Notes under the pieces: generated by a model
Databases searched by the model: none
The model's input: only the letters and a program-made list of their open reading frames with translations
What the model was told of the DNA's origin: nothing
Shown here: positions 2,484 through 22,000 of the stretch, piece after piece
How the letters are laid out: each line of letters begins with the position of its first letter
Position numbering within the stretch: the first letter of the stretch is position 1
Translations under genes and position numbers: made by a program
Source: an uncultured Verrucomicrobiae bacterium
GTDB taxonomy: Bacteria; Verrucomicrobiota; Verrucomicrobiia; Chthoniobacterales; UBA10450
Assembly (NCBI GenBank): GCA_963834385.1
Contig: CAWIBO010000005.1
Coordinates: 416,001 to 480,000, forward strand
Direction of reading: 5' to 3'
Length of the DNA: 64,000 bases

Positions 2484-3296
2484 ATGCCCACTGAAAACTC
2501 CGTCGCCAAGCCGAAGCCGTTCACCAACCGGTGGGGCGCCCTTGACCTGATTGTGCCCGTTCATAATGAGGAGAAATCGATCGCGGAATCCTTGCGGGAA
2601 TTATCGGAGGCGATGGCGAAGCGGGTGGGGGACCAGTATCGCCTGCTGATCTGTGAGGATGGATCAACCGACAAAACCCTGGCCATCGTCAAGCAATTGT
2701 CGTCGGAACTTCCGCTGCTGATCATCACCTCGCGCACACGGAAGGGTTATGCGCGGGCGGTGGCGGATGGTCTCCGGGCTTCCACCGCCGGACTCTGCGC
2801 GGTGGTGGAAGGCGACGGGCAGACCGACCCGGACAGCCTTGGTCTTCTGCTGGAACGCATCGAGGCAAACGATCTCTGCGTGGGCTGGAGAAATCCGCGG
2901 AGCGACAACTTCCTGCGTCGCTTTCTGTCGCGCGCCTACCGCTCCGTTTATCGGATGGTGGTGGGCGTGCCGCTTCTTGATCCCTCCTACGCCTGCATCC
3001 TGGTCCGGCGCGAGGCGCTTCTCCGCATCATGGATCACTTCACCTTTCGTCTGCCCGACGGTTTTTTCTGGGAGTTCAACGCCTGGGCGTGCGCGCTCTC
3101 GCTGCGCACGGTGGAGGTGCCGGTGTTGCACCGGGCCCGGCGCGACGGGCGCACGCGCGTTTTCCGGTTTCGGCGTCTGCCCGCGATTTCCCTCCGCAAC
3201 ATCGTGGGGCTGATCCGTCTGCGCCGCGACCTCCGGCAAACCAGCGGAGCGCCGCTGGTTGCGTCTTTCCCTGATCCCTCCCAGGCGGAAGGGTGA
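2484..3296 (+). CDS. Glycosyltransferase family 2 (polyprenol-phosphate sugar synthase/DPM1-like)
   Basis: IVPVHNEE, EDGSTDKT, GYARAV, EGDGQ and GWR motifs; ATG at 2484 chosen within ORF 2238-3296. Confidence 0.85.
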   Translation: MPTENSVAKPKPFTNRWGALDLIVPVHNEEKSIAESLRELSEAMAKRVGDQYRLLICEDGSTDKTLAIVKQLSSELPLLIITSRTRKGYARAVADGLRASTAGLCAVVEGDGQTDPDSLGLLLERIEANDLCVGWRNPRSDNFLRRFLSRAYRSVYRMVVGVPLLDPSYACILVRREALLRIMDHFTFRLPDGFFWEFNAWACALSLRTVEVPVLHRARRDGRTRVFRFRRLPAISLRNIVGLIRLRRDLRQTSGAPLVASFPDPSQAEG

Positions 3297-3349
3297 TGAG
3301 CCGGAGCCTTCCTTTGGCAACTTTCTGCCATTCCCTATAGTTTGACCTC

Positions 3350-3919
3350 ATGCAGCGGTGGCAAAGAAACTGGCAACGACGTTTTTTGCGCGCCTGGCCG
3401 CGCCGACGCCATCTGCGCGGAAGCCGGCTCCATCGACTGGTCGGCGAAGGTCTTTTCCAGCGTGAACTCTGGGCGCTGACGCGTCGGGGCCTGGCGGAAG
3501 GCCTCGCGGTCGGCCTTTTCATCGGCTGCACGCCCACGATGGGATTTCAAGTGATCCTCGGGGGACTGGCCGCCTATCTCCTGAAAGTAAACATCCCGGT
3601 GACGCTCCTGGCCACGCTGGTAAGCAATCCGCTGAGCGCCCCCATCCTTTACCCGCTCGAGTATCAGCTTGGGGTCTGGATGATCGGCCTGCCGGAAGGG
3701 AAGGATCTCGCCGGGTTCACCGGGGCCATGCGCAGCTTCTTTGGTTATGCCCGGCCGCTCTGGGCGGGTTCCCTCGTCTTTGGCCTGGTGTCCGGCGTCC
3801 TGGGCTACGGCCTCGGCACGCTGGTCTGGTGGAGCCGGAAGTTTTTTCGGCGCCGGCCGGCGCGCGTCACTGCTGGCGCGGTCCGGCGTCCGGAAGAGGA
3901 GCACGCCGGGATTCGCTGA
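3350..3919 (+). CDS. DUF2062 domain membrane protein
   Basis: GLAVGLFIGCTP...SNPLS pattern typical of DUF2062. Confidence 0.8.
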   Translation: MQRWQRNWQRRFLRAWPRRRHLRGSRLHRLVGEGLFQRELWALTRRGLAEGLAVGLFIGCTPTMGFQVILGGLAAYLLKVNIPVTLLATLVSNPLSAPILYPLEYQLGVWMIGLPEGKDLAGFTGAMRSFFGYARPLWAGSLVFGLVSGVLGYGLGTLVWWSRKFFRRRPARVTAGAVRRPEEEHAGIR

Positions 3920-4430
3920 GGAGGCGAGCCCAGCGCGGGCTGTAGGGATGAACGCGGGTGGCGGGCCGGCCCGCCTGCACAAGCGGTCGCCCTTCGTTCG
4001 CCCAGGCAAAGATCGAGCCGGACAAATTGCGGACATCGCGGTAACCGGCCTCCAATAAACGCTCCGCGAGGGCCGCGGAGCGGTATCCGACGGAGCAATA
4101 GGTCACAATGGGACGGTCCTTCGGCAGATCGAGTGTCGCCGGCCGGGCCTCCGGCGAAACCTGGCGGGCGCCGCGAAGATGGCTGACGGCGAATTCCTCC
4201 GCGGTGCGGACATCAAGCAGGAGCGGTTGCGGGCGGCGTTTATCAGCCTGCCACGCGGCCAGCTCCTCCGTGGAAAGCCGGGGCACGCGCGGGAAGTCAT
4301 GGCGCACTTTCCAGTTTACCAGCGCCCATTCGAGGAAGTTGGCCCGGGCGCTCACCGGAAAGAGCACGCCGAGGGAGAGGAGGAAGGCAAAAAGAACTCG
4401 TGTGACCAAGCCAGGACCACGGAAGAACAT
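3867..4430 (-). CDS. Rhodanese-like domain protein, exported
   Basis: LLDVRTAEEFAVSHLRGA, YCSVGYRS, LSGSIFAW; N-terminal hydrophobic segment. The 3' end overlaps the DUF2062 gene end. Confidence 0.85.
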   Translation of the reverse strand: MFFRGPGLVTRVLFAFLLSLGVLFPVSARANFLEWALVNWKVRHDFPRVPRLSTEELAAWQADKRRPQPLLLDVRTAEEFAVSHLRGARQVSPEARPATLDLPKDRPIVTYCSVGYRSAALAERLLEAGYRDVRNLSGSIFAWANEGRPLVQAGRPATRVHPYSPRWARLLSESRRAPLPDAGPRQQ

Positions 4431-4469
4431 CGCCCAATGGAGCGCGCCCGCGTCGAATGTCGAAAGAAT

Positions 4470-4967
4470 CTAGTGGTTTTCGGTCGTCGCGGGCGCGGGA
4501 AGATCCGAGTTCCACATATCGAGACTGGACTTCCAGGTTCCGTCCGCCTGTTTTTGCCAGACCACGAGGAACTTCCCGTTGTCCTGGACCGGTTTCCCGC
4601 CATCCGCCGGAGTGATCGTCACTTCGTAGGTCCCGCTCGTGATCCCCATGTCCCCGGAAGCGGCGACTTCAACCCGTGTCGATTTCCAGCTGATCTTGAA
4701 GCCCGGGATGTTGAACATCTCACTCCAGGTTTTTCGGATCGCCTCTTTCGTGGTGGCGGCCGGTGCGTTCGGCGGCATGACCACGGCGTCTTCGGTATAA
4801 TAGGAAACAACCTTCTCCAGGTCGCCCGAAGCCGCGGCGTCCGACCATTTTGCATTCAATTCTCGCAGGGTCTTTTCGACAGCCACGGTGTCCGCCCCGG
4901 CCGCGGGCAGGGCCGCGAGGACGAGGAGAGCGACGATCGAGCCGAATGAGATTGATCGATTTTTCAT
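4470..4967 (-). CDS. SnoaL/DUF4440 (NTF2-like, YybH family) exported protein
   Basis: Signal peptide from ATG 4967; YTEDAVVMPP, SGDMG and GKFLVVWQKQADGTWK motifs. Confidence 0.85.
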   Translation of the reverse strand: MKNRSISFGSIVALLVLAALPAAGADTVAVEKTLRELNAKWSDAAASGDLEKVVSYYTEDAVVMPPNAPAATTKEAIRKTWSEMFNIPGFKISWKSTRVEVAASGDMGITSGTYEVTITPADGGKPVQDNGKFLVVWQKQADGTWKSSLDMWNSDLPAPATTENH

Positions 4968-5054
4968 CAGGCCATTAAACGTTCGGAGAACCGAAAAGGA
5001 AAAGAAGAAACGGAAGGGGAACTGTAAATATGCGGCGCAGCCGGTGGAAGCATC

Positions 5055-6644
5055 TTGCGAGGCGAGGCGGCCAATCGCCCTCATTTTGCCGATTCAGGTG
5101 CGTTGAACTTCCGCAAACTTCTCCCACGGGCCGTTCTCCCGGCATTTTTTCTTCTCCTATCCTTCAACCTGGCCGAGGCGCAGGTCGGCGTGGTCGAGAT
5201 CACCTTTGAGGTGACACTCCCGGCGAACACCCCGCCGGGAGACAACATTTTCATCGCCGGGAATTTCCAGGGATGGGACCCGGGAGCCACCATGCTTTCC
5301 CGGGACAGCGCCACGCATGCTTCCGGCACGGTCACGGTCACCCAGGGTTCCGCGATGGAGTTCAAATTTACCCGGGGCGACTGGGGACGGGGCGAGAAGG
5401 CGGCGGATTGCAATGAGATCCCGAACCGGCAAGCCACGGCGAACGAGAACAAGACCATTTATTTGACGGTCGCGAACTGGGGCGACATCTGCGTCGCTTT
5501 TTACGACACCCGGGCGCAGAAGATCCGGCTGGAAACGACGGTGCTCGGGGTGCCGAAGGAGTTCTACGTTTACACACCGCCGGGCTACGAACAGTCACCC
5601 ACGCGGCGTTACCCTGTGCTTTATCTCTTCCGCGGGCACGAGAAGGAATGGATCAACAAGTTCGAAGACGGCACCCGCGGGGGGAGGAATGTGATCGACG
5701 TTTATGAGACGCTGCTCGCCGCCGGCGACGTCGGCCCGATGCTGCTCGTGTTCCCGGGCATCAGCAGCAACAACAACGCCATTTCCGGCATGCTCACCAA
5801 CTTCAAGTCGCCGGAGCTGACCTCGGCTCCCGGCATCGGGAACGGCCGCTTTGAGGATTACTTCATCCAGGATGTCATGGGTCATGTGGACGCAAACTTT
5901 CGCACGGTGGCGAACCGGCACGGGCGCGGGGTGGACGGGTTCTCCCTGGGTGGATTCATGAGCGCCAAGATCGCCTCCCAGCATCCGGAACTGTTCAAGA
6001 CCGTCGGGGTTTTCGATGGCACGCATTTCTATGCCGACCTCGACTGCTCGGACGTGGACGGGGTGCGCGATGCCAACACCTTTACCGCGAACGACATGTT
6101 CGACCCGGTCTACGGCGAACCGCGGGATACCGCCTTTGCCGCCCTGAACAATGGGCCAACCCTGGTTTGCAACAGCACACCGGGCCTGATGCAGAGCCTG
6201 CATTGGTTTGTGCAATACGGGCCGCTCAGCGGCGAACCGCTCAGCTCGAACTATCTGCGTGGCGATCATCTCATGGAAAAACTTACGGCCAAGGGCGTGA
6301 CCAACGGGATCACGGCGGTCCTGGAAGGCGGCCACAACTGGGCCACGGCGGATGAACACATGCGGCAGACCCTGCCGCTGCACTGGGAGGTGCTGGGGCC
6401 GGCCACGGTGATTGATCCGCCGCCGTTGCGCGTGACCGGCATCACCATGCTTTCCAATGGCAACGTGACCGTGGAGGGACTCGGACTTCCGTTTGGGGCG
6501 CACACGGTGGAAGCGACCGGCGAAATCACCGGGGAATTTCTGCCCGTGGCCACGATCACGGCGGACAGCAACGGGACACTTCTCTTCGAAGACACCGAAG
6601 CGGCCGGCGTCGATGCGCGTTTCTACCGGCTGACCTATCCCTGA
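5055..6644 (+). CDS. Secreted CBM20-like domain + alpha/beta-hydrolase esterase with C-terminal RFYR-type domain
   Basis: FIAGNFQGWDP...EFKFTRGDW (CBM20-like); YTPPGY...YPVLYL, GFSLGG nucleophile elbow, GGHNW; ends RFYRLTYP. True start may be the TTG near 5103. Confidence 0.8.
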   Translation: MRGEAANRPHFADSGALNFRKLLPRAVLPAFFLLLSFNLAEAQVGVVEITFEVTLPANTPPGDNIFIAGNFQGWDPGATMLSRDSATHASGTVTVTQGSAMEFKFTRGDWGRGEKAADCNEIPNRQATANENKTIYLTVANWGDICVAFYDTRAQKIRLETTVLGVPKEFYVYTPPGYEQSPTRRYPVLYLFRGHEKEWINKFEDGTRGGRNVIDVYETLLAAGDVGPMLLVFPGISSNNNAISGMLTNFKSPELTSAPGIGNGRFEDYFIQDVMGHVDANFRTVANRHGRGVDGFSLGGFMSAKIASQHPELFKTVGVFDGTHFYADLDCSDVDGVRDANTFTANDMFDPVYGEPRDTAFAALNNGPTLVCNSTPGLMQSLHWFVQYGPLSGEPLSSNYLRGDHLMEKLTAKGVTNGITAVLEGGHNWATADEHMRQTLPLHWEVLGPATVIDPPPLRVTGITMLSNGNVTVEGLGLPFGAHTVEATGEITGEFLPVATITADSNGTLLFEDTEAAGVDARFYRLTYP

Positions 6645-6729
6645 ACCGGGCGCGCGGCAGCAGCAGGAACATCGCCCGTTCTTTTTGGAGATTGTCTCCA
6701 TCGGCCTCCCGGTTTATGCCAGCGGGCGG

Positions 6730-9355
6730 ATGTCGCGGAGATCAGCGAAGTTAGATCGCGGCCGGCTCGTTTGTCGGGTGGCGAGGCCACCACGTGTTGA
6801 GCGCAGATGGAAGGGCGTCCTCCTTACGGCCTGTTTGCTTTGGATGGCGGTTTCCGCTGCCGTCGGCGCCACCCAGGCCAGCGACGCCGTGAGGATCGCG
6901 CCGGTTCCTGCATGGGTTGCCGAAACAAGGGTGGAGAAGAACGCGTGGGAAGTTCAGGATTCGGGCGGGGTCGGCCTTGTCCTGATGGATCGACAATTGC
7001 AGGTCGAACCGCGCGAATCATTTCATCGCGAGATCAGGCGCATCACCTCGGAAACCGGGGTCCAGCATGGGGCGGCCTTCAGTGTGACTTTTGATCCGGC
7101 TTATCAGGCCGTGGTTTTTCACGAGATTCTGCTTACACGCAACGGCCGCACCGTTTCGAGGCTGGCGCGTGACCAGATTAAACTTTTCCAGCGGGAACGG
7201 GAGCTGGAACGGTTCATCTACGACGGTTCTTTCACCGCGCAGTACGACGTCCCTGACGTTCGGGTCGGCGATGCGATTCAGTTTTCCTATACCGTTACGG
7301 GGGCCAACCCGGTGAAGGATGGGCGCTGTTCGATCATCTACTGGCTCGATTTTTCCTATCCGGTGGGGCAGAGCTTTCTCCGCATTGTGCACCCGGAGAA
7401 TCGTTCGGTGGCCGTGCGCTTGCTTCCGGAGACCGTGAAAGCGGCGATTTCCACGCGCAACGGGACCACCGAGATCGTGCACCGGGAACAGGGAGTGGCC
7501 GCGCGCCGCTTCGACGGCAATCTGCCCGTCGATTATGATCCCCGCCGCGCCATTCAGATTTCAGAATTTGAGACATGGGCGGAGCTGGCGCGGTGGGGCG
7601 CCGGGTTGTTTGCCCGCGGAGAAGGTTCTCTCTCGGCGGAATTGCAGGCCGAGGTCGGCCGATTGCAGCAGCTCGCCGAACCCGAGGCACAGGTGCTGGA
7701 AGCGTTGCGCTTCGTCCAGGATGAGGTGCGCTACCTTGGTTTCGAGGCAGGTGAGAATTCGCACCGGCCGACGCCTCCGGCCGAGGTTCTGCGTCGCCGC
7801 TTCGGCGACTGCAAGGATAAGACGCTCCTTCTGGCCACGCTCCTGCGAGAGTGCGGAATCGCGGCGGACCCGGCCCTCGTGAGCAACTTTTATCGGAGGA
7901 CGACCCCCGACTACCTGCCGGCTCCCGAATTTTTCGATCACGTTATCCTGCGTGTGCGCGTAAATGGAAAAACGCGCTGGTTGGACGCGACGCGCTCGAA
8001 ACAGCGCGGCCCTCTCTCGCAGATTTATGTGCCGGATTTTGGGCATGCCCTGGTGCTGACGGCGGACACGACCTCGTTGACGACTGGTGACGTCTCCGCG
8101 CGGCGCGCTGCCCAGGAAAAAGATCGTCAACACTTTCAGGATCGGGGCGCCGGGCGGCACCGCCGAGCTCGATGTCATAACCGAGTATCGTGGCGTGGCG
8201 GCCGATCGCCTGCGCGGATCGCTCGCTTCCATCCCTCGGGATGATGTGCAGCGCGATTATCTGAAGTTCTACAGCCGTCGTTTCCCCGGGGCCAAGGTCA
8301 GGAAACCGTTTGTCCTTGAGGAACACCCGGGGGCGAACGCGTGCACGGTCAAAGAGGCCTATCTCCTTCCTGATCTGTGGCATCTTAACGAGAAGGAGAA
8401 GCAGTATTCGCTCACCCTCATGCCGGACGAGCTCGAGGGGGCGCTCGGCCAGGTTCATTCCTCGTCGCGGGATGATCCTCTGGCGGTGGATCATCCGGTT
8501 GATCTGACGGAGGAGATCATCGCGATCATGTTCCAGTCCTGGCATCTGACAGCCAGTTCATCACCGGTGGCCAATGAGTTTTTCCGGTTCACTGAAAGAA
8601 CTGAGGGGCAGGGAAAACGGCTCCGTTTTGCCTACAGCTACAGGACCCTGACTGACCGGGTGCCAGCGGATAAGATCGCCGACTACAACCGCGCGATCTC
8701 CGACATCCGGGATACCCTCGGATATACCCTCGGTTACCGCACGCCCGCGCAGCTCGGACAGTGGTCTGGTCTTGCGAACTTCAACTGGCTCGTCGCGGCG
8801 GCGCTGCTGCCCTTTCTGGGTGTCATCACACTTCTCGCGGGCTTTTTCTTCTTCCTGAGCAAACGCGCTTCCCCGTTGCCGCCGCCTCTGGAGCCCGCAC
8901 TCCAGGGCATTGGCGGTTGGCTGATCCTTCCCCTGCTGGGTTTGATCATCCGGCCTTTTTCCTATCTTTGGGCGATGCTGCAGCTGATCCCATCGGTCTT
9001 TGTGAGCAAGACCTGGCGTTCGCTGACGGATGGCGCCTCCCCGCAGTTTGATGCCCAATGGGCTCCGGCTCTTCTCTTCGAACTTTTCTACAATTCGTTC
9101 GCTCTTATCCTGACGTTCCTCGTGCTGGCGCTCTTTTTCGCCAGGCGGGCGTGGTGGCCTCGTCTTTTCATCGGCTTACTCATCCTCGATGCGATCGCAA
9201 TCCTGACCGACCTTATCTTTGCGATGAATCTACCCGTCGATCCGGGAGTGGTGACCGGCGCACGCGCGCTTCTCGTGGGAGCCGTCGTCGGGGCGGCGAT
9301 CTGGATTCCGTATGTGCTCGTTTCGCGCCGGGTAAAGGCGACATTCCGTTTTTGA
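6730..9355 (+). CDS. DUF3857 + transglutaminase-like + DUF2569 membrane protein (frameshift near 8090)
   Basis: ORFs 6685-8244 and 8087-9355 join into one architecture; catalytic-type GDCKDK, FDHVI and WLD; C-terminal IGGWL...WIPY..SRRVKATF typical of DUF2569. Start uncertain. Confidence 0.8.
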
Positions 9356-9417: not shown

Positions 9418-11502
9418 TTACTTCGCTTCCATATGGTGGACGCCGTCCCATGCTGGCGGCGGATGGTCGGCCAGCGCGGCGCACCGGCTCGCCAGCAGGG
9501 CCGACGGTTTATCGCCGAACTCGTCCGCCAGGCGCTGGAACTGACCACGGGCCGTGGCGAATTCGCCCTTCAGGTAGAGCGCAAAGGCGGCTTCGTAACC
9601 TGAGCAAATCTCCTCGAAGCGCGCCGGACTGGCCGGGTGCGACAGTTCCGTCAGTTCCACGGGCGCGGTTTTGCCTTTGACCACTACCCGGTCGACCAAC
9701 CGTCCCGGGCCGCGTTCCGGCAGCGCGGCCAGCAATTCTCCCGTGACGAGAAACATGACCCCGTAAAATTTGGTCAGCGCCTCCACCCGGGCCGCTTCGT
9801 TGATGGTGTCGCCCACCAGTCCGTAATCGAGCCGCATGGCGGATCCTTTGTTTCCGCAGAGCACGCTTCCTTTGTGCAGGGCCACGCCGTAGCCGAAAAT
9901 GTCGCGCACGGCCGGGGCCAGGCCGGCTTTCACCTCCTGCATCGCGCTGATCAACTTGCGCGCGGCGCGCAGGGCGCGCTCCGGAGCGTCGGGTTGTTCC
10001 TGCGGCGCGCCCCAATAGCTGAGGAACTGGTCGCCAAGGAAGTGCTCAAGATTGCCTTCCTCGCTCATGATCGCGCCGGTTTGCGCCTCGAAGACACGGT
10101 TGAAAAGATCGAACATGCCGCCCGGCCCCAGCGTTTCGGCGAGCGGCGTGGAATTGCGCAGGTCGGTCAGGAGAACCGTGACCTCGGCGGCGCGCGGCTG
10201 CATGGAGCCGGGGTTGGAAAGGACTTCCTCCAGGACGCGGGGCGAGAAGTAATAGCTCATGGTCGTCCGGAGCCGGAGCCGTTCCAGGCGTTCATGGATG
10301 AAGTCGTGGGTGAGCGCGGCCAGCCCGAGCCCGAGCAGGAGAAGGAGCGGGCTGACGGTGAGGACAAGGAACCCGGCTCCATTGAAAAGAAGCTGGGTGA
10401 CAAAAACGAAGAGGACCGCCAGGACGAGCATGAGTCCGAGGCGCTTGACCGGCTGGTTGAGTCGCCGGCAAAGCCAGGCCGCGAGCAGCCCGGACCCGGC
10501 GATCAGGGCGAAACCCGTGACCCGGGAGGTTTCGCGCAACAGCTCACCCTGCAGGGCCGCCCCGATGATGTTGAGATGAATCTCCGGGCCGACCATGCGC
10601 GCGCCCGCGAACGGCGTGGAATGGTCATCATGAAAACTGCGGGCGTCGGTGGGGCCGATCAGGATGATTTTGTCGCGGAAAAACTCACCGTTTCCGTAGT
10701 TGCGCTCCCAGGCGCGGGGCGAGAGCACATCGCCGACCGGGTGAGGCCGATAGCCGAGGCCGGGTGGAGCGGTGTAACGGAAACGGTGCAGCGAGAAATC
10801 GGACGGGATGCGGTCGGCAAACCCCGCCTGCTGCAGGGCGCGCGCGGCCAGCGAAGCCGTGACCGCCTCCGGCCCGGCTGGGATGACGCTCTGGAGTTGT
10901 TCGTTCTCCAGCCGGAAAGCGGCGCGCCGCATGATCTGGTCGGGATCGGGCCAGATGTTGACGAAGCCGACACGCGCATCGAGGGCGGAACTGGCGGCCG
11001 CAGACTCGAGGACATCGGGGTGGGGCGGGGTGAAGCGCCAGAACTTGCCGCGATCCGTCTGCACATCGCTAAGGGAACTGCCGATGACGACCCGGCCGGC
11101 ATGCTTTGCCAGAACTTCACGGAGAGCGGCGTCGCCCGGGCCCGGCCCGGCAAAGACCAGGTCGATGACCACGGTGCGCGCCCCGGCCGCGAGCAGTTTC
11201 TCGATCAGGACCGCCCAGACCTGGCGCGACCAGGGGAATTGCCGGCGCAGTTCCTCGAGGACGGGGGCGACGGCGAGTTCGTCCGGGCTGAAATCACTGG
11301 CATAACTGGGGCGATCGATCCCGATCAGGACCAGTCGGGGATCGACGGGTGTTTTCCGGCCGAGGCGCAGGCGCCAGTCCTGCACGGACCATTCCGCCTC
11401 CTGGAGGGGGGCAAAGCCGGCCCCGTAAAGGAAGAGGAAGAGAGCGGTGAGAACGAGGCAGTAACCTGCCTGGATAAAGGAGCGTTTTGTTTTTGCTTCC
11501 AC
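9418..11502 (-). CDS. CHASE2-domain class III nucleotide cyclase with atypical specificity residues
   Basis: LVLIGID, FPWSR, VVIDLVF, GFVN..PDPD and GPEIH (CHASE2); three TM helices; TDLRNST, FLGD, GDTINEAARVE and VKGK; GTG start at 11502 chosen. Confidence 0.9.
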   Translation of the reverse strand: MEAKTKRSFIQAGYCLVLTALFLFLYGAGFAPLQEAEWSVQDWRLRLGRKTPVDPRLVLIGIDRPSYASDFSPDELAVAPVLEELRRQFPWSRQVWAVLIEKLLAAGARTVVIDLVFAGPGPGDAALREVLAKHAGRVVIGSSLSDVQTDRGKFWRFTPPHPDVLESAAASSALDARVGFVNIWPDPDQIMRRAAFRLENEQLQSVIPAGPEAVTASLAARALQQAGFADRIPSDFSLHRFRYTAPPGLGYRPHPVGDVLSPRAWERNYGNGEFFRDKIILIGPTDARSFHDDHSTPFAGARMVGPEIHLNIIGAALQGELLRETSRVTGFALIAGSGLLAAWLCRRLNQPVKRLGLMLVLAVLFVFVTQLLFNGAGFLVLTVSPLLLLLGLGLAALTHDFIHERLERLRLRTTMSYYFSPRVLEEVLSNPGSMQPRAAEVTVLLTDLRNSTPLAETLGPGGMFDLFNRVFEAQTGAIMSEEGNLEHFLGDQFLSYWGAPQEQPDAPERALRAARKLISAMQEVKAGLAPAVRDIFGYGVALHKGSVLCGNKGSAMRLDYGLVGDTINEAARVEALTKFYGVMFLVTGELLAALPERGPGRLVDRVVVKGKTAPVELTELSHPASPARFEEICSGYEAAFALYLKGEFATARGQFQRLADEFGDKPSALLASRCAALADHPPPAWDGVHHMEAK

Positions 11503-11514
11503 CGAAAGGTTTGA

Positions 11515-11530
11515 TGTGATGGAGTGCGCA
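11515..11530. promoter_or_regulatory. Possible CRP-family binding site
   Basis: TGTGA-tggagt-GCGCA, an 8/10 match to TGTGA-N6-TCACA, in the short divergent intergenic region. Confidence 0.3.
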
Positions 11531-11567
11531 TGTTGCCTGTTTACAACCCTGCGAGGCAACGACCGTT

Positions 11568-12401
11568 TTGAAGCGAACCCTTCTAATCATGGCTGCCGGC
11601 GCGCTGGCTATCGGCGGTGCAAACGGCGCCGAACCGTTGACCGAGGGCACTTTTACCGAGGTCGTGCGCGACGTGGCGGTGATTGACGCACAGACGCAGC
11701 AGGCGGTCTCAGCCTCCCGGAACGGGACCGTGCGCGCGCCCAACCTGGTGCGGACCGGCCCGGCCTCGCGCGCGGAGCTTTCGTCGCCTGACCAGAGTGT
11801 GACGCGGATCGGCGCCAACACCGTCTTTTCGTTTGTCCCCTCCGAGCGCGAGCTGCAATTGCAGAAGGGGAGCGTGCTCTTCCATACGCCGTCCGGCAAA
11901 GGCGGGTTGAAGGTGGAGACCAGCGGCGCCTCGGCTGCGGTTCTCGGCACCACCATCATTATTGTGGCCACGCCGAACGGCGGGTTCAAGATCATCGTGC
12001 TGGAAGGGAAAGCCCGTGTTTTCCTGCCCGGTATGGCGGCGCGCATCGTCGGGGCCGGCCAACTGGCCTTTGTTCTTCCGGGGCAGAAACGACTTGGGCC
12101 CGTCCTCACGATCAACCTGGCCAAGCTCGTGGCCGGGGCCAGGCTTGTGCATGGATTCGAAAACGGCCTGCCCTCCATGCCGGCGATTGAGGCGGCCATC
12201 GCCCAGCAACAGCAGATGCTCGCGTCCGGCGAGGCAACTGATACCGGCGAGCCCGCAGATACCGCGGCGGGAAAACCGGGCAATAGCGTGGACGATACCC
12301 ACGAACTGATCGCGCTGAACGTGCGCGGATTTTACGGGACCCCGAAGAAAGACGCGTCCGGCCAGGGGGGATTCATCCAGCCGACGCCTCCCCCGTTTTG
12401 A
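11568..12401 (+). CDS. Exported FecR-domain protein
   Basis: Signal peptide; VRTGPASRAEL...RIGANT...LQKGSVL...AAVLGT...VLEGKA FecR pattern. Confidence 0.85.
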   Translation: MKRTLLIMAAGALAIGGANGAEPLTEGTFTEVVRDVAVIDAQTQQAVSASRNGTVRAPNLVRTGPASRAELSSPDQSVTRIGANTVFSFVPSERELQLQKGSVLFHTPSGKGGLKVETSGASAAVLGTTIIIVATPNGGFKIIVLEGKARVFLPGMAARIVGAGQLAFVLPGQKRLGPVLTINLAKLVAGARLVHGFENGLPSMPAIEAAIAQQQQMLASGEATDTGEPADTAAGKPGNSVDDTHELIALNVRGFYGTPKKDASGQGGFIQPTPPPF

Positions 12402-13420
12402 GAACCTGTTTTCTTGTCGGCCTGATTACGTTCGCGGCCGGCGCCGTGCCTTTGTTGGCGCAGGTGCCCACAGCCGCGGAACGGCTCGATGAAATGCGCA
12501 ACCGGCCCCCGACGACCTCCGGGGCCTCGGAGGAGGAGTCGTCCGTGCCGGAACTTTATCCCGGGGAAACAGGCGACACCGGCAAACAGATCGTCCTGCG
12601 CATGGAGCCGCGCCGGAAGTTCTTCGAGGTCTCGGCCACGACCGACTTCTTTTATACCGACAACATGTTCCTCGAGGAAAACGACCCGCGGGAGACATGG
12701 GTGTTTACCAGCACGGTGGAAGCGGCCCTGGCTCCCGATCCTTATGACTGGGGACCGGGAAAATTCCTGCCCCGCCTCGGCTACCGCCATCAGTGGTTCG
12801 TCTACGGCTTTGAAGGTCTCAAGGACCCGCTGGAACCCGCTCCGCTGCCCCCGCAGATCATGCCACCCCCGCCGGTGACGGAATTTGATTTCAACGCGCA
12901 GACTGTTTTCGCCGAGGCGCGTTATCTTTGCGGCAACTGGCTCCTCGAGGCCGGGGTCGACTGGAGCCGGCTGATGGAGTCGGAGGAATACACCGAGTTT
13001 TATGTCGATTACGCGCCGTTCTGGGGAGTGCGCCGGCTGATCCCGGTGGATGAATGGCATTCTTTCCAGGTGGGTTACGCCGGCCGTTTTCATTTCGCCG
13101 AGCTGCGTTTTCTGCCCGACGTGCCGGAGGACATCACGGAGCGGCTCGATCATGTTTTCAGCGCCGCCTACACCTGGAACTGGAATGATCGGTTGCTGGC
13201 GCAGCCTTACTACCGGTTCAAATACACCGATTTCACCCGGAAAAGCGACTGGGAGGATTGTCTGCATTCGACCGGGATCTCGGTGCAATATCTCGTGACC
13301 CGCTGGTTGAGCGCGCGGGTGTTTGTCGCCTACGACGCCAAGGAATCGACCAACCCGGGCGTGGACGATTACACGAAGATCGACGCCGGCGGCGGGCTCA
13401 CGGTGAACCTGCGGTTCTAG
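12398..13420 (+). CDS. Outer-membrane beta-barrel protein
   Basis: Signal peptide, YTDN motif, alternating aromatic beta-strands, C-terminal Phe (LTVNLRF); start overlaps the FecR stop. Confidence 0.75.
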   Translation: MRTCFLVGLITFAAGAVPLLAQVPTAAERLDEMRNRPPTTSGASEEESSVPELYPGETGDTGKQIVLRMEPRRKFFEVSATTDFFYTDNMFLEENDPRETWVFTSTVEAALAPDPYDWGPGKFLPRLGYRHQWFVYGFEGLKDPLEPAPLPPQIMPPPPVTEFDFNAQTVFAEARYLCGNWLLEAGVDWSRLMESEEYTEFYVDYAPFWGVRRLIPVDEWHSFQVGYAGRFHFAELRFLPDVPEDITERLDHVFSAAYTWNWNDRLLAQPYYRFKYTDFTRKSDWEDCLHSTGISVQYLVTRWLSARVFVAYDAKESTNPGVDDYTKIDAGGGLTVNLRF

Positions 13421-13807: not shown

Positions 13808-14497
13808 CTACAAGAGCCTGACGCTGGTCACGGCAATCCGGCCGCCGAAACAGACGTCCACGTCCGCGCCCGGGGTCCGGCCGCGATCGGTGTATTCGCC
13901 CGCGAAATAAAGGCCGCTCTCCTCCTCGTGCCGATACTTCAGGGGCAGGGGATTCGGGTCGAGCGGGCACCAGACGACTTCCGGATCGGGTGCGTCCCGG
14001 TCGAGGTGAGGCAGGTTCACATTATAGAAGAGGCCGGGCTCGCGCGGCCGCGCAAACAGCTCGCGCAGGACCGGACCGATCCAGCGGGCGGCACGCGGCC
14101 AGTCGAAACCCATTCCCGCCTTGTGATAGTGCGAAAGCGCGATGCCAGGCCAGCCGTGCAGCACGGCCTCGCGCACCGCCGCCACCGTCCCGGAATAATG
14201 CATATCCGCCCCGAGATTGGAGCCATGATTGATCCCGCTGAGCACCCAGGCGGCCTCGGGAACGAGGTGGAGCAGTCCCAGACGGGTGCAATCGGCAGGC
14301 GTGCCGTGAATGGCAAACCGCTTCTCGCCCCGCGGTTCGATCCGCACCCCTTCGCGCCAGGTCACGGCATGGCTTACGCCCGACTGCGGCCCGGCCGGCG
14401 CCACCACCACAGGATCGCCGAAGGCCGCAGCCGCCTCCTGCAAGGCTTTCAGTCCGGGGGCATCGACGCCGTCGTCGTTGGTCACGAGGAATTGCAC
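13808..14497 (-). CDS. surE: 5'/3'-nucleotidase SurE
   Basis: LVTNDDG, QSGVSHA, GTPADC, SGINHGSNLG, YSGTVAA. Confidence 0.95.
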   Translation of the reverse strand: MQFLVTNDDGVDAPGLKALQEAAAAFGDPVVVAPAGPQSGVSHAVTWREGVRIEPRGEKRFAIHGTPADCTRLGLLHLVPEAAWVLSGINHGSNLGADMHYSGTVAAVREAVLHGWPGIALSHYHKAGMGFDWPRAARWIGPVLRELFARPREPGLFYNVNLPHLDRDAPDPEVVWCPLDPNPLPLKYRHEEESGLYFAGEYTDRGRTPGADVDVCFGGRIAVTSVRLL

Positions 14498-16147: not shown

Positions 16148-18478
16148 TTACTTCGATTTCATGACCCAGACGCCGTTCCACTCGCCTGCGGGCGGGTTGG
16201 CCTTGAGGTACTCGCAGCGGTTGATGTAGGTCTGGCTCAGTTTGTCGCCCGGGTGCAGCGCGAGGACCTCGCGGAACTGGGCGATCGCGCGGTCGAAATC
16301 GCCTGCCCGATAGTATTTCAGGCCGCCCCGGAACTGGTTGATCGCCTCGGGCATGCTGGGAAACGTCTCGTCAGAATGAAAATCGAGGATTTCGTGGATG
16401 GCGACCGGCTCGGTCTTGCCTTTCACGATCACCAGATCGATCTCGCGTGACCGGTAGGTGCCGCGCAGTTTGCGGTAGGTGTTGTCGCTGCAGAGGATCT
16501 GCGCGGAATATTCCTTGCAGGCGCTTTCCAGGCGCGAGGCCAGGTTGACCCCGTCGCCGATGACGGTGTAATCCATCCGCTTGGGCGAACCGATGTTGCC
16601 GGAGACGATGGTGTCGGTGTTCAGGCCGATGCCGATCTGGATCGGCTTTTGTCCGCGCCCGGCCCGCTGCCGGTTCAGGCCGTCGAGCTGCCGGATCATG
16701 GCAATGGCGGCGCGCATGGCGCGGTCGGGGTCGTCATCGTGCGGCACCGGAATGCCGAACTCGGCCATGATGGCGTCGCCGATGAACTTGTCGAGCATGC
16801 CGCCCTCCTCGGCGATGCAGTTGACCATGAGGGAGAAATATTCGTTGAGGAGGGCGACCGTGCCCGGGGCGCCGACCTCCTCGGTGAGGGTGGTAAAGGA
16901 GCGGATGTCGGAGAACAAGACCGTCGCCTCGACGCTTTGGCCGCCGAGAATTTCGCCGCCGGCGGCGAGGAGCCGGTCGGCCAGGCCCGGGTCCATGTAG
17001 CGCGACATGGTCGATTTCATCCGTTTCTCGCCGCTGATGTCCTCCAGCATGAGCATGGTGCCGAGGCGCTTTTCCTTCAGGCTGATCAGCGGCTGGATGG
17101 TGAGGTTCACGTTGACCTTTTCGCCGCCGAACTCGGCCTCGGCGTCCATCAGGACATCGCTTTCATTCGTCTCGGCGACGCGCGCGATGCGATCGTTGAT
17201 CCACTGGTTGTTGGCGGCGAAAAGGTCGGTGGCCGATTTTCCGATGAGTTCCTCGTCCGTCGCGCGCAGGATGCGGTTGCCGGCGGCGTTGCAGGTATGG
17301 ATCCGGCCCTCTTCATCCAGCGTGATGACGCCGCTCGACATGCTTTCGAGGATCGACTCGTTGTAGTTCTTCATGTTCTGCACGTCATCGAAGAGATTGG
17401 CGTTCTCGAGCGCGATCGAGACCTGTGCGGTGAAGGCCTTCAGGCGCGCCTCATCCTCGTCGGTGAAAGGGCCGCCGGCCCTGTTCAACGCCTGGGTTAC
17501 GCCAATGACGCGCCCGCTTTTGTTGATCACCGGGACGCAGAGAATGGAACGGGTGAAATATCCGGTCTTTTTGTCAAAGGCCGGGTTGAACCGGAGATCG
17601 GCATAGGCGTGCGGGATGTTGACGCTTTTGCCCGACTGGAAAACGGTGCCGGCGATGCCGGCGTGGTCGGGCAGCCGGAGCTGAACGGCGTTCAAGCCTT
17701 CGCCCACTTCGGACCAGAGCTCCTTCGTCTTTGGATCGTGCAGGAAGAGAGTGGACCGGTCCGCCTTGAGCATGCGGGTGGCCTCGCTCATGACGCGCCG
17801 GAGCAGGAGGGACAGATCGAGCGAGCTGGTGATATCCGCGACCAGGTCGAGGAATTCCATTTCCTGCTGGCGCGTTTTCCGCATCTTTTCCACGAACTGC
17901 GAGCTTTGCAGGGCGACCGAGGCCTGCGTGGCCATGGCCTCGAGCAGGTCGAGATCGTCCATGGTGAACTGTTCTTCACGTTTGTTCAGGGCCTGGACCA
18001 CGCCGATGACGTCGCCGCGCGCCGTCTTGATCGGGGCGCAGAGGATGGAGCGGGTGGTGAAGTTGGTCTGCTCGTCCACGTCCCGGTTGAAGCGGGGATC
18101 GGAGTAGGCGTCGGGCACGATCTCGCCGCAGCCCTGCTGGAAGACGGCGCCGGCGATGCCGCTGTTGTTCAGGATGCGGATCTCACGGTGGAACGTTCCC
18201 TGCGCCACCCGGGAATAAAGCTCGTTCGTGGCCGCGTCGTTCAGGAAGAGGGTGCCGCGTTCCGCGTTCGTTTCCGCGGTCACAATTTCGACCAGGGTGG
18301 CGAGCAACTCGTCGAGGCTGTCGATGGCGGCGACGCGGCGGCTGAGCTGGAGCAGGCGTTCGGTCTGGCGCAGGCGCGACCGGAGCAGGGCCAGCGTCTC
18401 GCGCGGCGGCTTTTCCTTCGTCCCGCCGCGGCGGGCGGTTTTTGTCCCGCCCGGGGCGCCGTTACGATCAGCGGCCAT
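16148..18478 (-). CDS. GAF-GAF-PAS class III adenylate cyclase
   Basis: Two GAF domains (GIAG...DxRFN..D..T.FTTRSILC.P), a PAS domain, and canonical SDIRSFT, DKFIGD, DYTVIGDGVNLASRLE; TPR-like tail. Confidence 0.93.
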   Translation of the reverse strand: MAADRNGAPGGTKTARRGGTKEKPPRETLALLRSRLRQTERLLQLSRRVAAIDSLDELLATLVEIVTAETNAERGTLFLNDAATNELYSRVAQGTFHREIRILNNSGIAGAVFQQGCGEIVPDAYSDPRFNRDVDEQTNFTTRSILCAPIKTARGDVIGVVQALNKREEQFTMDDLDLLEAMATQASVALQSSQFVEKMRKTRQQEMEFLDLVADITSSLDLSLLLRRVMSEATRMLKADRSTLFLHDPKTKELWSEVGEGLNAVQLRLPDHAGIAGTVFQSGKSVNIPHAYADLRFNPAFDKKTGYFTRSILCVPVINKSGRVIGVTQALNRAGGPFTDEDEARLKAFTAQVSIALENANLFDDVQNMKNYNESILESMSSGVITLDEEGRIHTCNAAGNRILRATDEELIGKSATDLFAANNQWINDRIARVAETNESDVLMDAEAEFGGEKVNVNLTIQPLISLKEKRLGTMLMLEDISGEKRMKSTMSRYMDPGLADRLLAAGGEILGGQSVEATVLFSDIRSFTTLTEEVGAPGTVALLNEYFSLMVNCIAEEGGMLDKFIGDAIMAEFGIPVPHDDDPDRAMRAAIAMIRQLDGLNRQRAGRGQKPIQIGIGLNTDTIVSGNIGSPKRMDYTVIGDGVNLASRLESACKEYSAQILCSDNTYRKLRGTYRSREIDLVIVKGKTEPVAIHEILDFHSDETFPSMPEAINQFRGGLKYYRAGDFDRAIAQFREVLALHPGDKLSQTYINRCEYLKANPPAGEWNGVWVMKSK

Positions 18479-18920
18479 GGGTTTCAAGCTGTTGCCGGAG
18501 GAGGGCGATGGTTTCCCGCAACTGGCGCGCTTCGTCTGCGGCCCTTTGTTTCACCTGCTCCAGGGCGGTGGCCTGTTCGTGGGCCTGCCGTTCCATCTCG
18601 TCGCGCAGGGTGGCGATGGTGGCGTGCAATTGCCGGGCCTCATCTTTCCCGGAGGCCTGGGTCGCCTGCACGGCCTCGCGTTTGGCCAGGTCGAGTTCCT
18701 CCATTTGCGCGCGCAAACTCCCGATGGTGGCCTGGAGCTGCTGCGCTTCGCCCCGGCCGGCAGCGCGCGCGGCCTGCACCTCCTCCTGGCGCGCCGCCTG
18801 CAAACTCTCCATCTCCTCGCGCAGGGCTGCGATGGTGTTCCTCAAGTGCCGCGTCTCCGTTTGCAGACGGTACGTCTCGGCCGCGGCGTCCTGGTCGATC
18901 AGATCGGTCTTCTCCGGCAC
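18468..18920 (-). CDS. Small coiled-coil protein with 36-aa repeats, overlapping the cyclase start
   Basis: Four ExxxLxxTIxxLRxxxE motifs at 36-aa spacing; stop overlaps the cyclase ATG; GTG 18920 chosen as start. Confidence 0.7.
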   Translation of the reverse strand: MPEKTDLIDQDAAAETYRLQTETRHLRNTIAALREEMESLQAARQEEVQAARAAGRGEAQQLQATIGSLRAQMEELDLAKREAVQATQASGKDEARQLHATIATLRDEMERQAHEQATALEQVKQRAADEARQLRETIALLRQQLETHGR

Positions 18921-19002
18921 CCCACAAGTGTCGCGAATAAGGATGGGCGCCCGCAAGAGGGAAGTGGGGGCCGGCTCAGGTCTGAGCCGCCCCCAGCCAG
19001 GC

Positions 19003-22000
19003 CTACTTCATGATGTTTGGCTCGAGCGTTGTAAGCTTCGACCAGGCCGACGCCGGTCGTGTTGCTCGCTCCCTTGACGATGGCGGTGTTAAGTCGGCCG
19101 TGCCCGGGGAAGAAGACGAGGGCCGATTCCTTCGGGTCGGTTGGGGCCAGCCCATAAGCGGTGATCGTGGCCGCGTCCGGGGAGTTGGCCCAGTCATCGT
19201 TGCTGTCGATGAGCTGCCCGTTGGCATTATAGAGTTCCAACACGGGATCCAGGAGCGGATCAGGCACGCCGTGGGCGGCGAGGGAAGGGCCGATCGCGCG
19301 CACCACCACCTCGGCCTGGTTGTTCCCGCGCACAATGATGCCGCCGATCAGCACCTCGTCACCGGTCTGGACATGGGCCCGGGTGGAGATGTTGGCCAGG
19401 GTCGAGCCGTTGTGGATTTCCAGGTCGTAGATCTCGACCAGGCCGATCCCGGTAGTGTCGTTCTTTCCGCTCAGGACCGCGGTGTAATTGGCGTTGGCCA
19501 CAAGTTCCACCAGGATGGCCGCTTCGTTCTGTTCGTCCGGGGCCAGGCCGGTGGCGGTGATCTCATCGGCGTTGGCCGCGTCCTGCCAGTCATCGTTCTC
19601 CGCCAGGAGCATGCCGTTGCTGTCGTAGAGCTTGATGACCGGATCATCCAGGTCGCCGGTCATGTCGAGGGACGGACCCAACCCGCGGATGAGCACCGTC
19701 TTGTTCGGGATCGGGAAGCCGCGCGGGGCGCGGTCCGGGATCTGGGGCCCGCGGACAATAAAGCCGCCGATGGCCACGTTGTCGCCGGTGCCGACGTCGG
19801 CGCGCGAGGAGATTTCGGCGAACTCGCGTTCGCCGTCGCAGAAGTCGCCGATCTGGTTGTTATCGGAATCGGCCTGGTTGGCGTTGGAGACCAGCGGGCA
19901 GTTATCCTCGGTGTCATTGACGCCGTCGTTGTCGTCGTCGGGATCGCAGAGGTCGCCCCGGCCATCCTGGTCGTTGTCGGCCTGGTCGGTATTGGCAGTG
20001 CCTTCGCAGTTATCGATGTCGTCGCAGACATCGTCGCTGTCGGCATCATTGTTGATGTCGTTGGGGCAGGCGTCGCAGGCGTCACCTAAGCCGTCGGTGT
20101 CGCTGTCGAGCTGATCGGGGTTGGAGTCGGTGGGGCAGTTATCAAGGTCGCCGCAGACATCGTCGCTGTCGGCGTCATTGTTGATGTCGTTGGGGCAGGC
20201 GTCGCAGGCGTCACCTAAGCCGTCGGTGTCGCTGTCGAGCTGATCGGGGTTGGAGTCGGTCCGGACAGTTGTCAACGTCGTTCGAGATGCCGTCGCCGTC
20301 GTCGTCGTCGCCGCCGGGCTGGCCCAGAACGAGATACGCGGCTTCGCTCGGGATGCCGTTGGTGAAGACGGTGACCAGGGCCGGGCCTTCCGGGAAACCG
20401 GAGATGGGGGTGGAAGTGAAGCTGGTGTCCGACCAGCCGAGGGTCATATCGACGAGGAGAAAGCGGACCTGCTCGCTGTCGAGCCGGCGCAACTGGACCA
20501 CGGGGTAATTGGTGGAGGAATCCTGGAAGTTGCCGCCGGAGGCCTGGGAGATGCCCTGGAAGCGGAGACCTGTCAGTTCAAGTTGGCCGTCGGGGAGGAC
20601 GAAACGGCGAGACGGTGAGAATCTCCGGCTGCCAGGCAGCGCTGAAGCCAAGTCCCACGTCATAAAGCTCCGCGCTGGCGAGAGTGCCGCTGTCCGTCAT
20701 CGCCGCCGGCGACGAGGACCTTGCCATTGGGCAGGAGGGTGGCCGTGTGAACATACCGCGCGGTGGCGAGGCTGCCGGTGGGGCTCCAGGGGCCGGTGGC
20801 CGGGTCATAAAGCTCCGCGCTGGCGAGAGGGCCGCTGCTCCCAAAGCCGCCGGCGACGAGGACCTTGCCATTGGGCAGGAGGGTGGCCGTGTGTATGATG
20901 CCGCGCGGTGGCGAGGCTGCCGGTGGGGCTCCAGGAGCCGGTGGCCGGGTCATAAAGCTCCGCGCTGGCGAGAAGGCGAGACTGCTATCAGCGCCGCCGG
21001 CGACGAGCGACCTTGCCATTGGGCAGGAGGGTGGCCGTGTGCTGAATACCGCGCGGTGGCGAGGCTGCCGGTGGAGCTCCAGGTGCCGGTGGCCGGGTCA
21101 TAAAGCTCCGCGCTGGCGAGAACGCCGCTGTTTCCATAGCCGCCGGCGACGAGGACCTTGCCATTGGGCAGGAGGGTGGCCGTGTGATATATCGCGCGTC
21201 GGCGAGGTTGCCGGTGGAGCTCCAGGAGCCGGTGGCCGGGTCATAAAGCTCCGCGCTGGCGAGAATGCTGCTGCTGCCAAAGCCGCCGGCGACGAGGACC
21301 TTGCCATTGGGCAGGAGGGTGGCCGTGTGAGAAGACCGCGCGGTGGCGAGGTTGCCGGTGGGGCTCCAGGGGCCGGTGGCCGGGTCATAGAGCTCCGCGC
21401 TGGCGAGAGCGCTGCTGCCGTCCCATAGCCGCCGGCGACGAGGACCTTGCCATTGGGCAGGAGGGTGGCCGTGTGAACAGTACCGCGCGGTGGCGAGGCT
21501 GCCGGTGGGGCTCCAGGAGCCGGTGGCCGGGTCATAAAGCTCCGCGCTGGCGAGGCTGTCGCTGCCACTCATGGCCGCCGGCGACGAGGACCTTGCCATT
21601 GGGCAGGAGGGTGGCCGTGTGACGATACCGCGCGGTGGCGAGGTTGCCGGTGGGGCTCCAGGAGCCGGTGGCCGGGTCATAAAGCTCCGCGCTGGCGAGA
21701 CGGCCGCTGGTCGCTAAGCCGCCGGCGACGAGGACCTTGCCATTGGGCAGGAGGGTGGCCGTGTGATAATTCCGCGCGGTGGCGAGGCTGCCGGTGGAGC
21801 TCCAGGTGCCGATGTCCGGGTCATAAAGCTCCGCGCTGGCGAGAACGCCGCTGTCCCACGCCGCCGGCGACGAGGACCTTGCCATTGGGCAGGAGGGTGG
21901 CCGTGTGAAGATACCGCGCGGCTGGCGAGGCTGCCGGTGGAGCTCCAGGTGCCGATGTCCGGGTCATAAAGCTCCGCGCTGGCGAGAGGGGTGCAACTGC

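Follow-up and report, generated by a model that had tools for sequence, protein, structure and literature searches.

A CHASE2-coupled class III nucleotide cyclase with a remodelled base pocket in an uncultured Verrucomicrobiae bacterium

The gene described here lies on a 64,000-nucleotide stretch of DNA from an uncultured Verrucomicrobiae bacterium (assembly GCA_963834385.1, contig CAWIBO010000005.1, positions 416,001 to 480,000; hereafter the window) and encodes a membrane-bound class III nucleotide cyclase with a CHASE2 sensor domain (Table 1). We found that this enzyme, the His506 cyclase, is an intact membrane sensor enzyme whose catalytic residues are complete. Its base pocket, defined by His506, Gln511 and Gly580, appears from its residues to be a new variant, unlike that of any characterised enzyme we found. 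A product other than cyclic AMP (cAMP) seems somewhat likelier than cAMP itself, and our tentative first choice is an active, homodimeric, membrane-anchored sensor that prefers GTP and makes cyclic GMP (cGMP), possibly with some activity on ATP. The literature searched held no report on this cyclase family or on a class III pocket with this His/Gly pair, most subscription papers lying beyond the search, as did Fig. S1A and Tables S1-S2 of the Pucsar preprint, which could include family members among the outgroup cyclases.

Retained catalytic residues and a replaced base pocket

The open reading frame (ORF) extends on the minus strand to a TTG at 11559 (9418-11559, 713 amino acids (aa)), and residue numbers refer to this 713-aa protein (P0001). 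It has the class III profile and fold, the metal-binding Asp pair, the transition-state Asn/Arg pair and the phosphate-binding Lys. A first-pass annotation, made from the letters of the window, had listed the metal and transition-state residues as retained, and Asp466, Asp510, Asn587 and Arg591 are each present in 119/119 of the best homologues compared (see below). The structure model of aa 434-713, a monomer with a mean predicted local-distance difference test score (pLDDT) of 91.9, matches the adenylate cyclases OaPAC, CyaC and CyaB, which share these metal and transition-state residues, and the guanylyl cyclase Cya2; the four are tied, with Z 20.9-21.8 and root-mean-square deviation (rmsd) 1.9-2.4.

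Compared with ordinary bacterial class III adenylate cyclases, the His506 cyclase has His for Lys, Gly for Thr, Leu for Phe, Gln for Ala and Lys for Ile/Met. The first two replacements had been noted at first pass, and alignment to Cya2 and OaPAC bears them out, placing His506 (CAC) on the Lys/Glu position and Gly580 (GGA) on the Thr/Asp/Cys position. The reading of GNMGS as GNKGS likewise held, with Lys571 constant in the 119 homologues, and the second cyclase of the window is canonical as claimed, with DKFIGDA and DYTVIGD. The substitution of NST for GFT is real, but its Asn is no oddity, since RhGC has Asn-Phe-Thr there and deeper members have NFT; the RhGC loop is reported to rely on backbone contacts. 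The exchange of Phe for Leu464 is a further pocket change that the annotation had not named. By spacing, the base cleft residues F455, V496, K497, I499, L504, D566 and L567 of CaAC correspond to Leu464, Glu505, His506, Leu508, Leu513, Gly580 and Leu581. Adenine is reported to be recognised by a Lys bonded to N1 and by Asp/Thr together with a backbone carbonyl at N6. Both of these side chains are missing here, the Lys being His506 and the Asp/Thr being Gly580, and on that ground we rejected membership of the canonical adenylate cyclases. In the model, strand beta3 starts at Gln511, which by alternation along the strand shares a face with Leu513.

The pocket is fixed among close homologues

Of 8000 candidates searched with aa 425-713, 776 proteins scored E <= 0.001. 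We compared the best 120, one of which is the query protein; the remaining 119 are 64-73% identical to it. Leu464, Asp466, Arg468, Asn469, Ser470, Gln493, Glu505, His506, Asp510, Gln511, Lys571, Asp578, Gly580, Asn587 and Arg591 are invariant in all of them, against a baseline of 74/185 invariant columns in the core and 8/73 in the tail. The His/Gln/Gly/Lys set (His506, Gln511, Gly580, Lys571), whose conservation the first-pass annotation had left to be checked, is thereby fixed. At the DNA level, 109 loci were reduced to 103 distinct ones by merging identical DNA, and among these the codons for His506, Gly580, Lys571 and Leu464 vary only synonymously. Gln511 is found in 102/103, with a single stop (L212), and Asp510 in 102/103, with a single Glu (L030). 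Because 80 of the 103 loci were selected by patterns holding His and Gln, the counts for those two residues are circular there; those for Gly580, Lys571 and Leu464 are free of this. The invariance and the synonymous-only variation rule out sequencing error, chance or drift as the source of the pocket changes. A profile search across the class, which for the most part gave ordinary CHASE2 cyclases, was the control: its 22 other matches had Lys at 506 in 22/22 and Thr at 580 in 20/22. All named family records are annotated as adenylate (or adenylate/guanylate) cyclases.

We placed the query in a tree of 81 rows drawn from the best 150 representatives at 50% clustering, with 13 short matches skipped and the ordinary Lys enzymes thinned to about one third. 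It falls in a single clade of 36 rows, with an approximate likelihood-ratio (SH-aLRT) support of 100, obtained by a quick method without bootstrap. Position 464 is Leu, Ile or Met in 36/36 rows of the clade and Phe in nearly all rows outside it; position 511 is Gln in 34/36, the others being one Arg and one apparently frameshifted row; position 580 is Gly in 27/36 and Thr in none of the 36; and position 506 is His in 24/36, Lys in 4, Asn in 2, Arg in 2 and other residues in 4. On these counts the clade is better marked by Gln511, together with the missing Phe and Thr, than by His506. We propose a single remodelling of the base pocket, in the stem lineage of the clade, after which it was held fixed. 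The named clade records come from Verrucomicrobia and Acidobacteriota. The distribution is patchy: 1/301 genomes of a phylum sample, 13/301 of the order and 15/201 of the order of another genome, G775.

Two further groups in the tree stand apart. In a subclade nested within the main clade (P0135, P0137, P0138, P0144, P0153, P0161), His506/Asp578 are replaced by Lys/His alongside Pro507, P0144 having Ala at 506. In a separate clade (P0177, P0216, P0238, P0256, P0262) the Lys position is Asp/Ser, Glu/Gly follows the second Asp and beta5 contains Lys-Tyr-Gly; the Asp/Glu/Lys/Gly set may represent a GTP pocket like that of Cya2 in shifted form.

GTP as the favoured substrate

An Asp-His pair offers a free nitrogen that in the neutral state is an acceptor, which fits guanine N1-H; once protonated it is a donor, which fits adenine N1. 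We propose that, with Thr changed to Gly580, adenine N6 loses its acceptor and a 6-oxo base can be accommodated, as in Cya2. With Asp578 holding it in place, His506 would present its unprotonated nitrogen to guanine N1-H, and the change from Phe to Leu464 would free space for Gln511 close to the N3/C2 edge of the purine, which bears an amino group in guanine and none in adenine. His506 and Gln511 would then share the task of the usual Glu. GTP use would account for every pocket change, including a polar group near the 2-position, whereas ATP use would leave Gln511 without a role.

Published structures provide points of comparison. The base in a guanylate cyclase-GTP structure is bonded by the first specificity position only, the second giving shape, and Cya2 pairs its Glu with a supporting Lys and its Gly with a Tyr. 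Cya2 and its fusion (6FHT) are the top PDB sequence matches of the His506 cyclase, and Cya2 has the same Gly, in favour of GTP. The first-pass annotation had taken the change from Thr to Gly as a sign of specificity, and this was weakened: Cya2 shares the Gly, yet its E488K variant, with Lys and Gly, is ATP-specific. Because Gly580 is thus permissive, as Ma1120 D157G also indicates, base choice would rest on His506 and Gln511; and since His can either donate or accept a hydrogen bond, ATP may still be a substrate. Of the annotation's broader proposal, an active enzyme with a remodelled pocket that might make cGMP or a cyclic pyrimidine, the intact catalytic set and the clade-wide pocket support the first part, while the pyrimidine option is weakened and ATP has to be kept in view.

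The comparison with Cya2 (Synechocystis PCC 6803 CHASE2 guanylyl cyclase, PDB 2W01; E488K fusion 6FHT) goes further than the Gly. The two share the CHASE2-transmembrane-cyclase layout and the fold (Z 21.0, rmsd 2.3, 193 residues aligned; sequence match E 1e-16). They differ in that Glu488 of Cya2 is His506 here, its supporting Lys is Asp578, the Tyr before its catalytic Arg is Ala590 and the Gly after its second Asp is Gln511; identity is only 28%. With architecture and Gly present but the Glu+Lys pair and the Tyr absent (2/4 features), we rejected membership of the Cya2-type guanylate cyclases.

Could the enzyme make cAMP after all?

Several observations weigh against a GTP-preferring enzyme. 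There is no Glu at 506, and the Cya2 partners of Glu and Gly are Asp578 and Ala590 here. Cya2-E488K is ATP-specific and Ma1120 D157G still prefers ATP. The reach of Gln511 to the base is an extrapolation from strand register in the model. A nested subclade (4 representatives) carries Lys506 with Gly580, along with Pro507 and His578, and His occurs at 506 in one ordinary Thr enzyme (P0255). Finally, PtdE, a protein with cyclic nucleoside monophosphate (cNMP)-binding domains that is often encoded near the cyclase (see below), occurs without a match to the His-type cyclase in 39/49 of the PtdE genomes, which are drafts, and its binding motif is alike with and without that cyclase.

Much of this fits the rival to which we give a substantial, if lesser, chance: that the His506 cyclase has remained an adenylate cyclase, or uses both ATP and GTP with relaxed specificity. 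In its protonated form and with support from Asp578, His506 would donate to adenine N1 as Lys does, and the backbone carbonyl of residue 581 would read N6, leaving the remaining substitutions to tune regulation or the response to pH. In its favour are the ATP specificity of the Lys+Gly Cya2 variant, the existence of the nested Lys+Gly subclade and the sameness of PtdE in either background. Acceptance of the N6 bond by a backbone carbonyl is reported for CaAC, Asp578 is kept as in bacterial adenylate cyclases where guanylate cyclases have Lys/Arg, and residue swaps have proved poor predictors of specificity in Ma1120. What it leaves unexplained is the joint change and fixation of four pocket positions across two phyla and the new Gln511; moreover, Lys is kept in 22/22 ordinary CHASE2-like cyclases of the same class.

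Cyclic pyrimidines, rare purines or an inactive subunit

We consider it unlikely that the His506 cyclase is a dedicated maker of a cyclic pyrimidine (cUMP or cCMP) or a rare purine (cIMP or cXMP) in ordinary sensory signalling. Pycsar PycC and Pucsar PucC enzymes likewise combine the class III scaffold with an altered base pocket and possibly a product other than cAMP. Their reported determinants are F100/R142/Q144 with D102/D146 in EaPycC, F60/K104/F109 with D62/D106 in AnPycC, Y50/D94/R97 in BcPycC and the guanine pair Glu/Lys (E118/K195) in PucC. Gln511, one residue after the second Asp, would occupy the slot of BcPycC Arg97 if the BcPycC Asp pair is 52/96, as the 44-residue spacing suggests; Arg is found at 506 in two deeper members, recalling Arg142 of EaPycC, which uses CTP; and a 6-oxo purine other than guanine would suit the same pocket logic as GTP. 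On the other side, the PycCs are aromatic two residues before the first Asp (Tyr50, Phe100, Phe60) and polar two residues before the second (Asp94, Gln144, Lys104), where the His506 cyclase has Leu464 and Leu508, and their determinants narrow the pocket that Gly580 enlarges here. The PycC profiles of PADLOC reach E 1e-16 at best, against 6e-25 for the ordinary adenylate cyclase of the window, and no PycTIR or PycTM gene adjoins the cyclase. PycC and PucC are, besides, soluble defence enzymes encoded beside CNBD-TIR or transmembrane effectors, with pocket sets (Tyr/Asp/Arg, Phe/Arg/Gln, Phe/Lys/Phe, Glu/Lys) that differ from that of this membrane sensor. We rejected PycC/PucC membership on pocket, profile and gene context; no PycC chain was among the PDB sequence or fold matches listed, which alone excludes nothing. 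On PycC-type fold details such as the N-terminal helix, the monomer model and the fold matches listed do not discriminate.

Least probable, in our estimate, is a catalytically dead or partner-dependent protein acting as a nucleotide-binding regulator or as half of a heterodimer. The core clade does have an alpha1 phosphate loop with Ser for Phe, L053 and L206 each have an Asn-type CNBD-cyclase tail-to-tail with a His-type cyclase, and single copies carry Asp510 to Glu (L030) or a stop at Gln511 (L212). Dead or heterodimer-specialised cyclase subunits usually lose one half of the active site, however, and here both halves, metal-binding and Asn/Arg/Lys, are conserved, whereas a genuinely degenerate CHASE2 cyclase of the same genome shows Arg to Lys in that motif.

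Candidate receptors and the ptd cluster

The module around the His-type cyclase is often found within the ptd cluster, which has been described in silico without an assigned function and whose PtdE carries cNMP-binding domains and 4Fe-4S clusters. A PtdE gene is present in 23/100 cyclase-bearing stretches, and a gene with a cNMP-binding domain (CNBD) in 31/112 loci and in 25/62 of the loci of at least 10 kb (raw counts, no background rate). Such frequent CNBD neighbours fit an active cyclase. By genome, PtdE occurs in 10/15 with the His-type cyclase, against 3.7 expected (Fisher p 0.0004, overstated as kin are non-independent). Directly downstream of the cyclase in six loci (L050, at 2748-5207, L062, L104, L106, L110 and L113) is an ABC exporter with a C-terminal CNBD, a second candidate receptor. 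The product would be read by cNMP-binding proteins such as PtdE or this exporter, separately from the pool of cAMP made by the Lys/Thr cyclases. The genome retains Lys/Thr cyclases besides the His506 cyclase, so that a second messenger of its own would be insulated from that pool. A wider form of the pyrimidine and rare-purine idea, in which the clade is a dedicated, envelope-sensor-coupled maker of a messenger that is neither cAMP nor cGMP (cUMP, cCMP, cIMP or cXMP), read by PtdE and the ABC-CNBD exporter in everyday signalling, is also improbable.

We rejected PtdE as a dedicated, co-evolving receptor on account of the PtdE genomes without a His-type match, the unchanged motif and the position of this genome's ptd cluster on contig C1, away from the cyclase. 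Neighbouring CNBDs do not report the ligand, since their phosphate cassette is Arg-Thr or Arg-Ser with or without the cyclase. The ptd cluster of this genome contains no cyclase; its PtdE-like CNBD/4Fe-4S gene (L031, G000:C1:49383-51482) is of a divergent type with two intact-looking phosphate cassettes.

Among 25 ptd regions from genomes without a His-type match, 24 contain no cyclase. The exception, L181, holds a CHASE2 cyclase of an unrelated family whose Lys position is Asp, together with a fused FecR-TPR-barrel-like partner; the pair takes the slot and orientation that the His type has in L201. G775 (L200) carries an Asn version of this second CHASE2 family on the other flank of ptd. That family (L181:1498-7162, G850:C252; L200:5871-11514, G775:C105) keeps Thr and has a FecR-TPR-barrel-like partner of about 1200 aa. 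That both ptd-recruited CHASE2 families lack the Lys leans slightly against cAMP, with two families only.

Gene neighbourhood and other cyclases

The genes adjoining the cyclase in the window encode a FecR-domain protein and a barrel, both divergent from the cyclase, and a DUF2569 protein. Across 100 cyclase-bearing stretches (99 loci, many short, and the window), a FecR gene stands beside the cyclase in 52 and a barrel gene is present in 33. The barrel of the window is a probable one, assigned from its atlas neighbours. By analogy with NsrA and CyaK, barrel and FecR-like protein may relay an outside cue to CHASE2. Sinorhizobium meliloti CyaD1, CyaD2 and CyaK, with NsrA and Clr, similarly combine a CHASE2 cyclase with an outer-membrane barrel partner, and these cyclases are reported to make cAMP; here, in place of NsrA, there are a separate FecR protein and a 340-aa barrel, and no Crp-like gene adjoins the cyclase.

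The first-pass annotation had placed the enzyme outside a defence context. This holds for the locus in the window, but CHAT genes are present in 15/100 cyclase-bearing stretches, and TIR, patatin or STAND genes accompany some of them. The CHAT type of locus occurs in two genera of the window's order and in Acidobacteria, has a secreted protein of 220-240 aa upstream, and has TPR-CHAT, caspase, TIR, patatin, STAND or TPR-S cyclase genes nearby; it looks like a conflict or cell-death locus. Because the cyclase is found at both FecR/barrel and CHAT loci, the same pocket would serve two sensory contexts, one of them conflict-like. The CHAT/caspase branch of the clade comprises L035-L044, L003-L005, L112 and L117, where nSTAND1, S8 protease and GAF genes also lie nearby.

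Further cyclases were seen at related loci and in the same genome. The CNBD-cyclase fusion at L053:1698-3011 and L206:8488-9762, whose Lys position is Asn, adjoins the His-type cyclase tail-to-tail and could form a relay or a heterodimer with it. A CHASE2 cyclase of the same genome (L032, G000:C2:1023217-1025289) has the Lys/Thr pair and Lys for the catalytic Arg (NVTWK), is divergent from a long FecR-like gene and is possibly weak or dead. Directly upstream of the GAF-GAF-PAS cyclase in the window, and overlapping it, is a 162-aa coiled-coil repeat ORF (18468-18956).

Elsewhere in the window, the ORF at 13808-14497, which we take to be SurE-like from its TNDDG motif, has no Pfam or NCBIfam match and recurs in 0/99 related loci. 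The DUF3857/transglutaminase and DUF2569 ORFs at 6685-9355 overlap in different frames, as if a single gene had been frameshifted, and a repeat-rich gene ([16 protein letters not shown] units) at 20211-22715 is broken across many frames, likely by assembly indels. The TPR label of the cyclase's C-terminal tail (Table 1) is suggested by the like tail of the second cyclase in the window.

Table 1. Features of the His506 cyclase and of genes near it in the window
Feature	Position	Strand	Details
CHASE2-transmembrane-class III cyclase gene	9418..11502	(-)	694 aa from GTG 11502, the start of the database copy
N-terminal hydrophobic segment, predicted first transmembrane helix	11422..11478	(-)	aa 28-46; hydropathy
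CHASE2 extracytoplasmic sensor domain	10495..11439	(-)	aa 41-355; Pfam PF05226, E 2e-40
Two predicted transmembrane helices	10312..10440	(-)	aa 374-392 and 398-416; hydropathy
Class III nucleotide cyclase domain	9640..10194	(-)	about aa 456-640; Pfam PF00211 over cut-off and fold match
Leu464, in place of base-cleft Phe (RhGC F455)	10168..10170	(-)	119/119; mapped by spacing
Asp466, first metal ligand	10162..10164	(-)	codon and 119/119 best homologues
Glu505-His506; His at the Lys (adenylate) or Glu (guanylate) position	10042..10047	(-)	His506 codon CAC 10042-10044
Asp510 (second metal ligand) and Gln511	10027..10032	(-)	Gln511 codon CAG 10027-10029; most constant marker of the clade (34/36)
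Lys571 of GNKGS, dimerisation arm	9847..9849	(-)	Ile/Met/Val in ordinary enzymes
Asp578-Tyr-Gly580; Gly at the Thr/Asp (adenylate), Cys (guanylate) or Gly (Cya2) position	9820..9828	(-)	Gly580 codon GGA 9820-9822
Asn587 and Arg591, transition-state pair	9787..9801	(-)	both in 119/119 best homologues
Lys628, gamma-phosphate Lys (RhGC K612)	9676..9678	(-)	118/119 best homologues; role as reported in the literature
C-terminal three-helix, TPR-like tail	9421..9627	(-)	helices in structure model
Secreted FecR-domain protein gene, divergent from the cyclase	11568..12401	(+)	PF04773, E 2e-13
Probable outer-membrane beta-barrel gene	12398..13420	(+)	340 aa, no Pfam match; atlas neighbours BBP2 and SlipAM barrels at 0.97
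GAF-GAF-PAS adenylate cyclase gene, canonical Lys/Thr	16148..18478	(-)	internal control, outside the module

Implications

Annotation of class III cyclases rests throughout on the rule that Lys with Asp/Thr means ATP and Glu with Cys/Gly means GTP. The His506 cyclase resembles Cya2 or CyaK in layout and, on the residues compared, appears to fall outside the canonical adenylate cyclase, Cya2, PycC and PucC groups. With its fixed His/Gln/Gly pocket, the family would read a base in a new manner. If the product is cGMP, a sizeable family would join the short list of bacterial guanylate cyclases, and cGMP would gain a link with envelope sensing and perhaps with the Ptd electron-transfer complex, itself uncharacterised. 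Were it a pyrimidine or rare purine nucleotide, such messengers would reach beyond defence, and if the product is cAMP, the enzyme would still be a clear exception to the Lys with Asp/Thr rule.

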